This document shows, in pieces, positions 43,499 to 46,137 of a DNA stretch of 46,137 bases; within the stretch, counting starts at the first letter, position 1; every line of letters begins with the position of its first letter. The position numbers were made by a program, and so were the translations under genes. This DNA comes from a virus (Duplodnaviria > Heunggongvirae > Uroviricota > Caudoviricetes). The DNA lies in the IMG/VR virus record IMGVR_UViG_644736364_000003. The stretch is one strand, 5' to 3'. Under the pieces are notes generated by a model. The model was given only the letters and a program-made list of their open reading frames with translations, made no database searches and had not been told where the DNA came from.

Positions 43499-45559
43499 AT
43501 GACAGTAAAAATTTCTGGCGTGCTTAAAGATGGCACAGGAAAACCAGTACAGAACTGCACCATTGTGCTGAAGGCCAGACGGACCAGCAGCACGGTGGTG
43601 GTGAACACGGTGGCCTCTGAAAATCCGGATGAAGCCGGGCGTTACAGCATGGATGTTGAGTATGGCCAGTACAGCGTCACCCTGCTGGTTGAAGGTTTTC
43701 CACCTTCACATGCCGGGACCATTACCGTCTATGAAGGTTCCAGACCAGGTACGCTGAATGATTTTCTCGGTGCCATGACGGAGGATGATGTTCGTCCGGA
43801 GGCACTGCGCCGTTTTGAGCTGATGGTGAATGAAGTGGCACGTCATGCCGGAGCGTCATCACAGAGTGCAGCGGCGGCAAAGAAATCCGAAACGGCAGCG
43901 ACATCATCGAAGAACGCGGCGAAAACCTCAGAAACGAATGCAGCTAACAGCGCACAGGCGGCAGCGGCCTCGCAGACTGCATCGGCAAACTCCGCGACAG
44001 CAGCCAAAAAATCAGAAACCAGCGCGAAAAATAGCGAGACAGCCACAAAGGCCAGCGAAAAAAACGCAAAATCCAGCCAGACGGCAGCGAAAACCAGTGA
44101 GACGAATGCCAAAGACAGTGAAGCCAACGCAAAGGTGAGCGAAACAGCGGCGGCGAACTCGGCGAAAGCATCGGCAGCAAGCCAGACGGCAGCAAAAGCA
44201 AGTGAAGATGCTGCCAGAGAATACGCAAACCAGACAGCAGAGCCGTACAGATATGTTTTACAGCCGCTGCCGGATGTGTGGATACCCTTTAATGATTCGC
44301 TGGATATGATTACGGGCTATTCTCCGGGTTATAAAAAAGTGAAGATTGGTGATAATGTGGTTCAGGTTGCCAGTGATAAACAGGTTAATTTCAGTCGCGC
44401 ATCAACGGCAACATATATCAACAAATCTGGCGAACTGAAAACGGCGGAAATTAATGAGCCACGATTTGAAAAAGAAGGTTTATTGATTGAAGGTCAGCGA
44501 ACCAACTACATGTTGAATTCAGCAACTCCAGCTTCTTGGGGTAAATCTGCAAATATGAATGTCGCTGATGTTGGAACTGATAGTTTTGGTTTTACTTATG
44601 GAAAGTTTGTTTGTAATGAATCATTAATTGGGCAAAGTACAACCCTTAATATGGCAGTAGTTTCAACCTCGGGGGCTGTCGATGTATCAGGCGATAATAA
44701 GTGTGTGACGACATCGTGCAGATTTAAAACGGATTTGGAACTCCTGTTAAGGATCAGGTTTGAAGCCTTCGATGGCAGCGCTTCATCTAATCTTGGATAT
44801 GCCATTGTTAATACGCGGTCTTTATTGGTTGAAATCACCGGTGTAGCTGCCGACAGGCTCACCGCACGAGTTAACAAAGATGAAGCTACGGGCTGGATTT
44901 TTGTAGAGGCAACGATTCAAGCAAGTAAAGAAACTTACATAACCTCTGCAATACAATACGCACCAAAAAAAGGTGGTGTCGTTGAATCTGGTGACTATAT
45001 TTATCTGGCCACCCCTCAGGTTGAGGATGGTTCGTGTGTATCATCTTTTATTATATCAGGAACGACGGCGGCGACGCGCGCAAGCGATATGGTTACAGTT
45101 CCGATTAAGAATAATCTTTATAATCTTCCTTTTACGGTTCTTTGTGAGGTACATAAGAACTGGTATAAAACGCCAAATGCAGCGCCACGTGTTTTTGATA
45201 CCGGCGGTCATCAAACCGGAGCGGCTATTATTCTTGGCTTCGGATCTTCGGCAGATGGGCCAGACGGATTTCCTTATTGCGATATTGGTGGATCAAATAG
45301 GCGTGTTAACGAAAACGCATCGTTGAAAAAAATGGTTATGGGGATGCGTGTAAAGTCAGATCAGTCTACATGTGCAGTAAGTAACGGGCGTATATCCAGC
45401 GAAACAAAAACCACATGGGAATATATCCGGAGTACAGCAACCATTCGCATTGGTGGACAAACTACAGCAGGATTACGCCATTTATTTGGGCATGTGAGGA
45501 ATTTTCGTCTCTGGCATAAAGAGCTAACAGATGCGCAGCTTGGGGAGGTTGTGGAGTGA
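43499..45559 (+). CDS. stf: Side tail fibre protein (lambda Stf-like N-terminus, divergent C-terminal domain)
   Basis: N-terminus MTVKISGVLKDGTGKPVQNCTIVLKARRTSSTVVVNTVASENPDEAGRYSMDVEYGQYSV matches lambda Stf; Ala/Ser/Thr/Lys repeat-rich shaft; AT-rich C-terminal 400 aa. Confidence 0.8.
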   Translation: MTVKISGVLKDGTGKPVQNCTIVLKARRTSSTVVVNTVASENPDEAGRYSMDVEYGQYSVTLLVEGFPPSHAGTITVYEGSRPGTLNDFLGAMTEDDVRPEALRRFELMVNEVARHAGASSQSAAAAKKSETAATSSKNAAKTSETNAANSAQAAAASQTASANSATAAKKSETSAKNSETATKASEKNAKSSQTAAKTSETNAKDSEANAKVSETAAANSAKASAASQTAAKASEDAAREYANQTAEPYRYVLQPLPDVWIPFNDSLDMITGYSPGYKKVKIGDNVVQVASDKQVNFSRASTATYINKSGELKTAEINEPRFEKEGLLIEGQRTNYMLNSATPASWGKSANMNVADVGTDSFGFTYGKFVCNESLIGQSTTLNMAVVSTSGAVDVSGDNKCVTTSCRFKTDLELLLRIRFEAFDGSASSNLGYAIVNTRSLLVEITGVAADRLTARVNKDEATGWIFVEATIQASKETYITSAIQYAPKKGGVVESGDYIYLATPQVEDGSCVSSFIISGTTAATRASDMVTVPIKNNLYNLPFTVLCEVHKNWYKTPNAAPRVFDTGGHQTGAAIILGFGSSADGPDGFPYCDIGGSNRRVNENASLKKMVMGMRVKSDQSTCAVSNGRISSETKTTWEYIRSTATIRIGGQTTAGLRHLFGHVRNFRLWHKELTDAQLGEVVE

Positions 45560-45834
45560 GAGATTTCACGTTGCGTTTCAGTGATAAAGCAGATTTCAGG
45601 GCATTTCTCAGGAAACTTAACTGGGAAGAGGACGAAGAGCTGCAGAATGCCGTTCTGGTTGATGAGATTGGTTTTACGTTCAGGGAGACAGATGTTTCTG
45701 ATGACGGAGAACCAGAATACACGCGAAACGAAGGGTACTTTGTTAATATCCGTCTTCTTGACGATGGATTTGATGATTCCGTGTTCCGTGAGTGGGTGGT
45801 TACACCAGAGCGCCCGCTCAGGGAGTGGTTTTAA
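45556..45834 (+). CDS. Hypothetical protein downstream of stf (possible fibre-assembly accessory or moron)
   Basis: 92 aa; GTG start after GGAGG, overlapping stf stop; acidic. Confidence 0.4.
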   Translation: MRDFTLRFSDKADFRAFLRKLNWEEDEELQNAVLVDEIGFTFRETDVSDDGEPEYTRNEGYFVNIRLLDDGFDDSVFREWVVTPERPLREWF

Positions 45835-45843
45835 GGATAGCAG

Positions 45844-46137
45844 ATGGATATCACGTCGATACTTCATGCGCTTTGTGCCGTGGCGGTGCAGGTACTGGCT
45901 GGTCTTTTTACCGGAAACTGGGCTTACGGGGCGATAGCCGGTTGTACGTTCTTCATTGCGCGTGAACACACCCAGGCAGAATATCGCTGGATTGAAATGT
46001 TCGGGCATGGCAAGCGGATTAACATGCCGTGGTGGGGCGGTTTTGATCCACGTGCATGGGATGTGGCAAGCCTGATGGATTTTGCTGTGCCGGTGGTGGC
46101 GTGTCTGCTGGTCTGGCTGTTGGTTAATCGTGGGTGA
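45844..46137 (+). CDS. Hypothetical small membrane protein
   Basis: 97 aa with two hydrophobic segments; AAGGA-like RBS; ends at window edge. Confidence 0.4.
   Translation: MDITSILHALCAVAVQVLAGLFTGNWAYGAIAGCTFFIAREHTQAEYRWIEMFGHGKRINMPWWGGFDPRAWDVASLMDFAVPVVACLLVWLLVNRG

Follow-up and report, generated by a model that had tools for sequence, protein, structure and literature searches.

The host-recognition end of an E. coli prophage, its right end, was resolved by inspection of the open reading frames into, in order, a side tail fibre gene (stf) and two small genes, orf92 and orf97. The locus raises the question of where the tip of the fibre came from, and whether the two small genes behind it belong to the fibre or are separate cargo. 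The window referred to below is the whole stretch of DNA analysed, 46,137 nucleotides long.

The prophage and its chimeric side tail fibre

The window comes from a lambdoid prophage that is intact and sits at argU, the integration site of DLP12, in an ExPEC E. coli, as is evident from the chromosomes of MS7163 and other ExPEC strains, which contain DNA 100% identical to the locus, from argU and intD on the left of the prophage and from a 48-bp attR on its right. The J gene (38988-42680) is followed by Lom (42748-43347; PF06316, E 2e-127) and then by Stf, a protein of 686 aa (43499-45559, + strand). A terminator-like hairpin with a 13-bp stem and a T run was located between lom and stf (43451..43480, +); it is a pattern match only, obtained from a consensus scan of the identical MS7163 sequence, and antiterminated late transcripts would presumably read through it.

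The first small gene, orf92 (45556..45834, +; 92 aa, PHROG 1361), has a GTG start that overlaps the stf stop codon as GTGA, and a GGAGG Shine-Dalgarno motif can be read within the end of stf, 7 nt 5' of this start (45544..45548, +). Because of this motif and the overlap, orf92 appears to be translationally coupled to stf, so that its product would be made in step with Stf. The second small gene, orf97 (45844..46137, +; 97 aa, PHROG 1443), begins with ATG, and its stop codon ends at the last base of the window; its Shine-Dalgarno motif, AAGGA (45833..45837, +), lies 6 nt 5' of the ATG and overlaps the orf92 stop codon. The spacing of the three genes was identical in 46 of 46 IMG/VR loci. A consensus-pattern scan detected neither sigma-70-like nor terminator-like sites between stf and the end of orf97. 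Judged by their substitution patterns, both small genes are real genes under purifying selection (pN 0.23 versus pS 0.87 for orf92; dN/dS 0.13-0.18 for orf97). Such an arrangement is nothing unusual: it is a mosaic module, already sequenced many times, in which two accessory families are uncharacterised.

With regard to the fibre itself, the original prediction of a lambda-like N-terminus and Ala/Ser/Thr/Lys shaft held up well. Stf aa 1-131 (43499..43891, +) form a lambda-type N-terminal tail-attachment domain (PF08400, phage_tail_N; E 2e-68, 228.9 bits versus a cutoff of 26.6), and aa 1-158 were 74% identical to lambda orf-401. The following shaft (aa ~110-256; 43826..44266, +) is rich in Ala, Ser, Thr, Lys, Glu and Asn, which together made up 84% of aa 110-255, and gave repeat-type matches to the orf-401 shaft. 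Its autocorrelation peaked at offsets of 7, 14, 21, 28 and 35 residues with z of about 7-9 (z ~8.7 versus shuffles for the 7-residue period), in agreement with a heptad repeat. Since TRF found no tandem repeat in the DNA, this periodicity exists at the protein level only.

Beyond approximately aa 208, blastp found no match to lambda orf-401 or orf-314, even at E 10. The protein thus has the PF08400 anchor and the position after J and lom that are expected of a lambda-type Stf, but not the lambda-like distal region that corresponds to orf-314. GC content was 0.518 for the whole window, 0.575 for J and 0.54 for Stf aa 1-256, and fell to 0.432 for Stf aa 257-686, so that the C-terminal part is indeed AT-rich and unrelated to lambda, as had been claimed. 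Because the lambda likeness extends to aa 158 (PF08400 and 74% identity), no match was found past ~208 and GC content breaks at aa 257, sequence comparison identifies Stf as a chimera, whose lambda-type anchor and heptad shaft give way, at about aa 257, to a distal module of foreign origin and low GC content.

The distal module and orf92

The exchanged module starts with a conserved connector (aa 257-297; 44267..44389, +), recognised by its conservation and by the drop in GC to 0.39-0.45 from about 44300. Across phage families, Stf aa 257-330 were ~70% identical; for the alleles of E. coli prophages the figure was 96-100%. The next domain, D1 (aa ~298-545; 44390..45133, +), is hypervariable and homologous to the head-spike fibre of RcGTA, the Rhodobacter gene transfer agent. 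The domain search of the distal part that the original prediction had proposed assigned aa 329-528 to the NCBIfam head-spike-fibre domain NF048003 (50.5 bits versus a curated cutoff of 36), and an independent phmmer search matched D1 to chain F3 of PDB 6TB9 (Rcc01080; E 2.9e-6). Across 46 related prophage loci, no block other than D1 varied strongly, and its alleles, in identity classes of 100, 74 and 51%, lay between near-identical flanks. Rcc01080, the RcGTA head-spike fibre, binds capsule (PMC7296036, PMC10218006). Because of this homology and of its own hypervariability, D1 is probably the part of the fibre that binds surface polysaccharide, either O-antigen or capsule, and that determines specificity.

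The C-terminal domain, D2 (aa 546-686 and the stop codon; 45134..45559, +), is conserved, and was 74-87% identical in fibres of Queuovirinae, T5-like, T1-like and Dhillonvirus phages. Laminin_G_3 (PF13385) gave no match on the window protein itself; seven of eight Stf homologues matched it at 16-26 bits (26.2 at best), all under the gathering threshold of 27.6 bits. In one homologue, Gp22 of phage IrisVonRoten, a C-terminal galectin-like domain has been described (PMC11990801). D2 is probably a beta-sandwich of the ConA-like/LamG ('galectin-like') type. Pfam detected no Peptidase_S74 intramolecular-chaperone domain in Stf. The Stf homologues listed for the window protein were all at least 96% identical.

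The claim that the distal 430 aa had been exchanged horizontally was borne out both by the GC break and by the distribution of the module, which also ends the lateral fibres of six other phage groups at 43-76% aa identity. The module occurred in 201 phage records and an orf92 homologue in 185-191, the carriers being lambdoid, T1-like, T5-like, Queuovirinae, Dhillonvirus and rV5-like phages. All eight fibres fetched from different groups had Stf 257-685 in common, and in all ~22 records present in both listings orf92 started 0-21 nt after the fibre gene. A natural swap could be observed in the rV5-like backbone: rV5 gp41 and the CarlMeissner fibre are 91% identical over 1049 aa, after which their tips differ, the rV5 tip having an S74-type intramolecular-chaperone end (judged by sequence motifs) without orf92, and the CarlMeissner tip the Stf-like module with orf92. 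HK97 was considered as a further carrier and rejected, having a short Stf and Tfa instead. By this pattern of co-occurrence, the distal module and orf92 constitute a cassette of two genes, which at least six lineages of coliphages have exchanged. The original prediction had counted both small genes as possible moron, effector or defence cargo. For orf92 this did not stand: since it has a low GC content (0.466) like that of the distal module, overlaps the stf stop codon and adjoins the module in every record checked, its sequence context places it in the fibre cassette and not among the morons.

The product of orf92 is an acidic (pI 4.3), soluble alpha/beta protein with no known fold or family, PHROG 1361 being a family of unknown function. 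Its C-terminal tail has the pattern P-x-R-x-W. Searches of Pfam, NCBIfam and PADLOC at E 0.1 gave no match, and blastp no similarity to lambda Tfa. The AF2 model reached a pLDDT of 90.6 with an input of 22 sequences, as against 59.7 with four near-identical ones. Two candidate relationships were discarded. A sequence search of solved structures matched Tetrahymena p19 (E 0.004), which is weak and was treated as chance; profile matches to giant PKD-repeat proteins reflect a shared hairpin motif only, and a PKD/Ig domain was ruled out by the confident alpha/beta model. As for the literature, the DT57C LtfA/LtfB papers, the Eligo lambda-chimera paper and the phage 21 genome announcement do not discuss these genes.

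In several respects orf92 resembles Tfa: it is small, lies directly after the fibre gene, is coupled to it, and is swapped together with the tip. By analogy, its product most likely acts on the fibre tip as a dedicated folding/assembly factor or partner, in the role that Tfa has in lambda; the role may also be likened to that of the C-terminal intramolecular chaperone of other fibres, although orf92 is related neither to that domain nor to Tfa. An alternative that we consider unlikely, yet worth keeping in mind, is that the orf92 product belongs to the virion structure itself, as a small cap or connector by which a second, distal fibre is docked at the tip of the first; since this prophage and phage 21 have no second fibre, it would there merely cap the tip. 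In several phages a second fibre gene, whose product has a conserved peptide at its N-terminus, comes after the fibre gene and orf92, an arrangement that a connector would explain equally well. However, orf92 is also under purifying selection where the second fibre is absent (the window, phage 21 and Dhillonvirus 'rolling'), and in AnnaHegner the T-shaped distal fibres attach to the proximal fibres, the products of adjacent genes (Gp9/Gp10), with no small protein mentioned (PMC11990801). It speaks against a tip factor that the divergence of orf92 did not track that of D2: in VogelGryff, D2 was 87% identical and orf92 only 43%, and in phage 21 the values were 43% and 64%, respectively. A dedicated folding/assembly factor for the tip remains our preferred reading of orf92.

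orf97 and the DNA beyond the window

In contrast to orf92, the GC content of orf97 (0.548) differs from that of the cassette (0.43-0.47), and its neighbours are unrelated, so that an independent composition and distribution of the moron type was found for orf97 only; the earlier idea of separable cargo therefore stands for this gene. By hydropathy its product is a membrane protein, with hydrophobic segments at aa 4-39 and 77-95, a highly conserved Trp/Arg-rich loop, and the invariant residues H8, R40, E41, Q44, E46, Y47, R48, W72 and D79. Homologues formed 571 clusters. In 11 of 13 contexts, mostly prophages (lambdoid, P22-like, P2/HP1-like and others), orf97 lay directly behind fibre or tailspike genes; these genes belong to a wide variety of unrelated kinds, at some of the junctions stop and start codons overlap, and once orf97 was found between two tailspike genes. 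One homologue stands alone in an Aeromonas chromosome in a non-phage context, and partial matches were found in large phages (~150-240 kb) from Aeromonas, Cobetia and Salmonella.

Like PHROG 1361, PHROG 1443 is a family of unknown function, and orf97 had no match in Pfam, NCBIfam or PADLOC at E 0.1, no similarity to lambda Tfa by blastp and no match in a sequence search of solved structures. Thus neither small protein is a Tfa homologue, as had been predicted, and the HMM searches suggested for them returned no Pfam or NCBIfam chaperone family. Membership of a holin family was not supported, as only 1 of 33 orf97-family members gave a weak Phage_holin_8 match (E 0.042); one E. coli prophage has a full set of holin, endolysin and spanin genes after orf97. 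The possibility that orf92 and orf97 form a two-gene unit was rejected, since orf92 is unrelated to the small ORFs that come before orf97 in Comamonas and P2-like prophages, and the virulent phages that carry the Stf module and orf92 are without orf97.

From its sequence and contexts, orf97 appears to encode a small protein of the inner membrane and to travel independently of the cassette, in a place behind receptor-binding genes, chiefly those of temperate phages. Most likely the protein modifies or protects the envelope, be it of the lysogen or of an infected cell, which makes it a candidate for superinfection exclusion or lysogenic conversion. Neither orf97 nor orf92 had a moron-type promoter and terminator of its own by consensus scan; for orf97 this counts against the conversion reading, which would call for expression in the lysogen, and so do the Aeromonas homologue outside a phage context and the partial matches in large phages. 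Its apparent place in a late operon (a good Shine-Dalgarno motif, no promoter consensus of its own), together with its position against so many kinds of fibre and tailspike genes, would also suit a protein that serves the receptor-binding proteins directly, for example a late membrane factor that blocks binding of progeny fibres to the lysing cell or its debris, or one that aids fibre maturation. This we judge rather improbable, as orf97 is missing from virulent phages with the very same fibre module and occurs alone in Aeromonas, and a membrane location would be odd for a helper of tail fibres, which are assembled in the cytoplasm. An effect of orf97 on the envelope thus remains the preferred reading.

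The prediction that cargo continues past 46137 proved correct: attR, a 48-bp repeat of argU, was located 4.45 kb further on, and the interval contains, besides a tfa remnant, genes for a methyltransferase and an alpha/beta hydrolase as well as ompT. The remnant qualifies the earlier statement that no Tfa is recognisable, which was true within the window but not of the adjacent DNA, where the final 39 codons of a lambda-type tfa follow after 20 nt. This surviving 3' stub suggests that the cassette replaced an older Stf-tip/Tfa pair. The interval between stf and the attachment site is a known cargo site, occupied by sitABCD in phage 21 and in the phage D2 and by ompT and other genes here, and this, with the deviating GC content and unrelated neighbours of orf97, would favour the notion that both small genes are independent cargo (defence, anti-defence or effector morons); we regard it as very improbable, because orf92 was never apart from the fibre module in the records checked, overlaps the stop codon of the module and occurs equally in virulent phages (T1-like, T5-like, rV5-like and Queuovirinae), for which cargo serving lysogeny would be pointless, and because no promoter or terminator consensus brackets either gene and no PADLOC model matched Stf, orf92 or orf97 at E 0.1.

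Synthesis and comparison with known systems

Taken together, we propose that the lambda-type anchor would hold the fibre on the tail tip while D1 binds a surface polysaccharide and determines specificity; that orf92 would be made alongside Stf and act on the fibre tip as a folding/assembly factor; that orf97 would ride behind the receptor-binding gene and alter or guard the envelope of the lysogen or infected cell; and that the cassette would have displaced an earlier Stf-tip/Tfa pair, leaving the tfa stub. As a whole, this explanation (chimeric Stf, D1/D2 tip, orf92 as tip factor, orf97 in envelope change or exclusion, and tip/Tfa replacement) appears reasonably probable to us. A bolder joint reading is possible but doubtful, namely that orf92 represents a new, structurally distinct class of tip factor and orf97 a widespread small membrane protein, perhaps with a new and general mechanism of superinfection exclusion or envelope conversion. 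Under it, orf92, whether chaperone or cap, would be an obligatory companion of the GTA-like/LamG-like module in siphoviruses and myoviruses alike, and orf97 would be enzyme-like or target-specific and set behind receptor-binding genes by temperate phages of all morphotypes.

Several consequences follow for the description of this prophage. The fibre tip is not an orphan but a probable glycan-binding two-domain module, with aa ~298-545 as the block likely to determine specificity, and the first small gene should be annotated as part of the fibre cassette. The prophage itself extends past the window edge, with ~4.4 kb of further cargo, including ompT, before attR. If lambda-type or T5-type fibres are engineered with this tip, orf92 should probably move along. 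PHROG 1361 and 1443 are common, conserved and unstudied families. Current ideas on phage mosaicism are not overturned.

Among known systems, cargo sites behind receptor-binding genes are familiar from temperate phages, such as the P22 tailspike-int interval, P2 after gene G and the lambda b region. Homologues of orf97 occupy exactly these intervals, although orf97 matches none of the cargo-site genes tested and has no evident promoter or terminator. Fibres of the rV5 gp41 type (Peptidase_S74) hold their tip in the same slot but have their own cleavable chaperone and no orf92, whereas the Stf-like tip lacks S74 and is accompanied by orf92. Rcc01080 of RcGTA (PDB 6TB9) and RcapMu gp58 share sequence homology with Stf aa 298-543; however, they are ~325-aa proteins with D1 only, without D2 or a lambda-type anchor, and in RcapMu no orf92 was found downstream of gp58. 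Since Rcc01080 is resolved at residues 2-10 only, 6TB9 offers no experimental fold for comparison.

The lambda system (Stf, orf-401/orf-314, with Tfa) shares with the window the position after J and lom, the anchor, the repeat-type shaft and the order of a fibre gene followed by a small overlapping accessory gene. It differs in that the distal 430 aa of the window Stf are unrelated, and in that Tfa has 194 aa, while orf92 encodes an acidic alpha/beta protein of 92 aa with no similarity to it; a tfa stub occurs only outside the window. In the T5-like phage IrisVonRoten (Bas32; Gp22-Gp23-Gp24), Gp22, described as a 'proximal fiber' (PMC11990801), aligned with Stf aa 127-685 at 55% identity, and Gp23 is an orf92 homologue (46%). 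Equivalent loci were present in Queuovirinae, Drexlerviridae, Dhillonvirus and Vequintavirinae. In these loci a second, distal fibre follows orf92 and orf97 is absent, whereas the window fibre ends with D1/D2. Phage 21 encodes a side tail fibre, a hypothetical protein and a putative membrane protein (CPT_21_22/23/24) of the same lengths (686, 92 and 97 aa) and with the same spacing. It carries a different allele (64% identity for Stf, 43% for D2, 64% for orf92 and 93% for orf97), and sitABCD lies downstream, where the window prophage has the tfa stub and the ompT cargo. Finally, the DNA of PhiR40_1 was 99% identical to the locus.

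Gene order and composition of the side tail fibre gene

Three same-strand genes filled the 3'-terminal 2.6 kb of the window, after J (38988-42680) and lom (42748-43347): stf (43499-45559, 686 aa), orf92 (45556-45834, 92 aa) and orf97 (45844-46137, 97 aa), the last of which had its stop codon at the final base. The GTG start codon of orf92 overlapped the stf stop codon (GTGA) and lay 7 nt 3' of a GGAGG motif, and AAGGA was found 6 nt 5' of the orf97 ATG. A strong terminator-like hairpin (13-bp stem and T run, 43451-43480) was present between lom and stf. A minus-strand ORF of 215 aa (45361-46008), antisense to orf92 and orf97, had no support and was treated as spurious, because both plus-strand genes were under purifying selection.

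The original prediction described Stf as having a lambda-like N-terminus, an Ala/Ser/Thr/Lys repeat shaft and an AT-rich distal part unrelated to lambda, and each of these features was recovered. The N-terminus matched PF08400 (E 2e-68), and aa 1-158 were 74% identical to lambda orf-401. Residues 110-255 consisted to 84% of A/S/T/K/E/N with a strong 7-residue periodicity (z ~8.7); no DNA-level repeat was detected in the shaft by TRF. No match to lambda Stf was found past approximately aa 208. The GC content of stf was 0.54 for aa 1-256 versus 0.432 for aa 257-686; it was 0.466 in orf92 and rose again to 0.548 in orf97 (0.575 in J and 0.518 in the whole window). Its anchor and gene position place the window Stf in the lambda Stf family, whereas its tip does not.

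The distal module and its companion gene orf92

Within the distal module (aa 257-686), we distinguished a hypervariable domain (D1, aa ~298-545) and a conserved C-terminal domain (D2, aa 546-686). Residues 329-528 scored 50.5 bits against NCBIfam NF048003 ('head spike fiber domain', cutoff 36), and aa 298-543 aligned to the RcGTA head-spike fibre Rcc01080 (6TB9; E 2.9e-6, phmmer against PDB sequences). By this curated score, the tip is assigned to the head-spike-fibre domain family. Rcc01080 binds the Rhodobacter capsule, and only its first ten residues were resolved, which leaves no experimental fold for comparison (PMC7296036, PMC10218006). For the last ~140 aa, sub-threshold matches to Laminin_G_3 (ConA-like lectin) were observed in seven of eight homologues, the window Stf itself giving none. 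The BASEL authors called the Stf homologue Gp22 of IrisVonRoten a 'proximal fiber' and described a galectin-like domain at its C-terminus, maybe an extra receptor-binding domain (PMC11990801).

Comparison of 46 related E. coli prophage loci revealed that aa 331-545 (window 44489-45133) fell into three allele classes (~100, 74 and 51% identity) and were the sole block to split in this way, whereas aa 257-330, aa 546-686 and orf92 kept 84-100% identity. This pattern looks like cassette-style exchange and is as expected of a specificity-determining domain; we infer a variable surface glycan as the ligand of D1.

The distal module was found at a coverage of at least 80% in 201 phage records (tblastn), and orf92 homologues occurred in 191 records (185 at a coverage of at least 80%). 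Carriers included lambdoid phages (phage 21 among them), Drexlerviridae, T5-like Demerecviridae, Queuovirinae, Dhillonvirus and rV5-like Vequintavirinae. The distance from the fibre gene to the orf92 start was 0-21 nt in all of the ~22 records among the matches listed for both searches. Stf residues 257-685 were common to all eight fetched fibres (43-69% identity), and the N-terminal halves differed. In addition, rV5 gp41 (3200-7018 of the rV5 locus) and the CarlMeissner fibre (562-5333 of its locus) were 91% identical over 1049 aa and then carried alternative tips: in rV5 the tip is an intramolecular chaperone of the S74 type and orf92 does not follow, whereas in CarlMeissner it is a Stf-like module with an orf92 homologue behind it. 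The shared low GC content, the adjacency across records and this swap therefore identify the distal module plus orf92 as the unit of exchange. The D1-only proteins Rcc01080 and RcapMu gp58 lacked D2, and orf92 was absent after RcapMu gp58. Five records labelled as Campylobacter or Listeria phages (MG065692, MG065654, MG065652, OR847733 and OR848352) contained coliphage-type fibre modules with orf92; these sequences are apparently mislabelled or contaminants.

The orf92 product was acidic (pI 4.3) and soluble. An exhaustive profile search yielded only 56 representatives, almost all of them stand-alone proteins 85-100 aa long, with invariant positions M1, D3, L6, D36, N64, R66, R89 and W91. Its AF2 model (22 sequences) was a confident alpha/beta fold (pLDDT 90.6), uncertain only in the last ten residues; it had no convincing match among solved structures in the PDB (best E 0.016, Foldseek), and a viral structure library returned uncharacterised phage proteins only. 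As originally predicted, neither orf92 nor orf97 resembled lambda Tfa; in addition, neither matched a family in Pfam, NCBIfam or PADLOC.

Since the same slot holds Tfa or an intramolecular chaperone in alternative cassettes, orf92 is most likely a dedicated folding/assembly factor for this tip. The main rival is that orf92 is a structural cap or connector. Several phages have a second fibre gene after orf92 (starting at 5556, 5587, 5688, 5289 and 4792 in loci L006, L007, L008, L010 and L057, respectively), and these second fibres, whose bodies are unrelated, have in common a conserved peptide at the N-terminus, T(V/I)IPxDIxxLKN, which is probably their docking element. However, no second fibre gene is present in the window, and orf92 is conserved without one in the window, phage 21 and 'rolling'; moreover, the published account of T-shaped-fibre attachment to proximal fibres names no such protein (PMC11990801). 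The divergence of orf92 was not in step with that of D2, and thus no contact surface was indicated.

The orf92 profile also matched 5-9 stretches in the giant proteins P0277, P0287, P0289 and P0307, three of the four being PKD-repeat proteins, and the best stretch in P0277 coincided with a PKD domain (861-926). Since the model of orf92 is alpha/beta and not Ig-like, a PKD/Ig-like nature was rejected, and a common G-Y-x-V-x-hydrophobic-R hairpin motif was taken to explain these matches.

Features and genomic contexts of orf97

The orf97 product had one hydrophobic stretch at aa 4-39 and another at aa 77-95, with a loop of striking conservation between them, AREHTQAEYRWI...GKRxNMPWWGGFD. Thirteen positions, including H8, R40, E41, Q44, E46, Y47, R48, W72 and D79, were invariant among members from Escherichia, Salmonella, Enterobacter, Leclercia, Aeromonas, Comamonas and a Halomonas phage. 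Loop conservation of this degree is unusual in a membrane protein of such size and may point to enzymatic activity or to a specific target that is itself conserved. No Pfam family and, by sequence, no relative among solved structures was found.

In 11 of the 13 contexts examined, orf97 lay directly behind a receptor-binding gene. It followed stf-orf92 or a second fibre in lambdoid phages, the tail fibre gene in HP1/P2-like prophages (directly or with one 71-75 aa ORF between), the fibre-assembly gene in phiHAP-1, and a J-like gene plus a 72-aa ORF in a Comamonas prophage. It was also located between tailspike and int in the P22-like phage Gally, between two tailspike genes in a Salmonella prophage, between a gene for an 853-aa GDSL-esterase domain protein and the lysis cassette in an E. 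coli prophage, among unannotated genes in Aeromonas phage 62AhydR11PP, and in a non-phage context on an Aeromonas chromosome, where it adjoined two lipid A acyltransferase-family genes. It was absent from virulent phages with the same fibre module and orf92. Our reading is that orf97 is a separable gene that would move together with receptor-binding cassettes, chiefly those of temperate phages. Its candidate function, most likely but with low confidence, is an action on the envelope (exclusion or conversion). Alternatively, orf97 may be expressed late and have a fibre-related role; a consensus scan found no promoter or terminator of its own.

DNA beyond the window and comparison with known systems

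The 3' 1.8 kb of the window matched ExPEC chromosomes such as that of MS7163 at 100% identity and IHE3034 at 99.8%. In MS7163, the window extends from the intD stop codon, beside tRNA-Arg argU (the DLP12 site), to the orf97 stop codon. A remnant of a lambda-type tfa (its last ~39 codons, ending ...TSTAPDIEWPTNPVRE and a stop) begins 20 nt past the window, followed by a small ORF, a SAM methyltransferase gene (minus strand), a second tfa fragment, an alpha/beta hydrolase gene (minus strand) and ompT (minus strand) (MS7163 604355-608837; 9857-14339 of the fetched sequence, L003). The putative attR, a 48-bp direct repeat matching the 3' half of argU, is situated 4.45 kb past the window end. Thus, no attR immediately follows the small genes, and the cargo continues past 46137, as had been suspected, with the methyltransferase, hydrolase and ompT genes. 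Beyond attR, a second, degenerate prophage remnant carries fragments of int and tfa, a methyltransferase gene, another copy of ompT and a partial att (22+13 bp). Directly 3' of orf97, phage 21 (L002 6970-10419) and phage D2 (L060 6178-9627) carry the sitABCD iron/manganese transporter genes; D2 also has IS elements between a truncated stf and orf92, and E. coli N32 (H36) has IS2 in the equivalent region. On the whole, the original observation was confirmed and its interpretation partly supported.

Annotated copies of this trio exist in phage 21, which was isolated in the 1950s, as well as in ECOR-derived phages and hundreds of E. coli genomes. In the literature searched, we found no description of the strict orf92-tip pairing or of the habit of orf97 to sit behind receptor-binding genes. 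In gene organisation orf92 is like Tfa, but it is a member of no Tfa family. The locus is no new kind of system; as a mosaic tail-fibre cassette it is ordinary, and its two accessory genes, though uncharacterised, are common.
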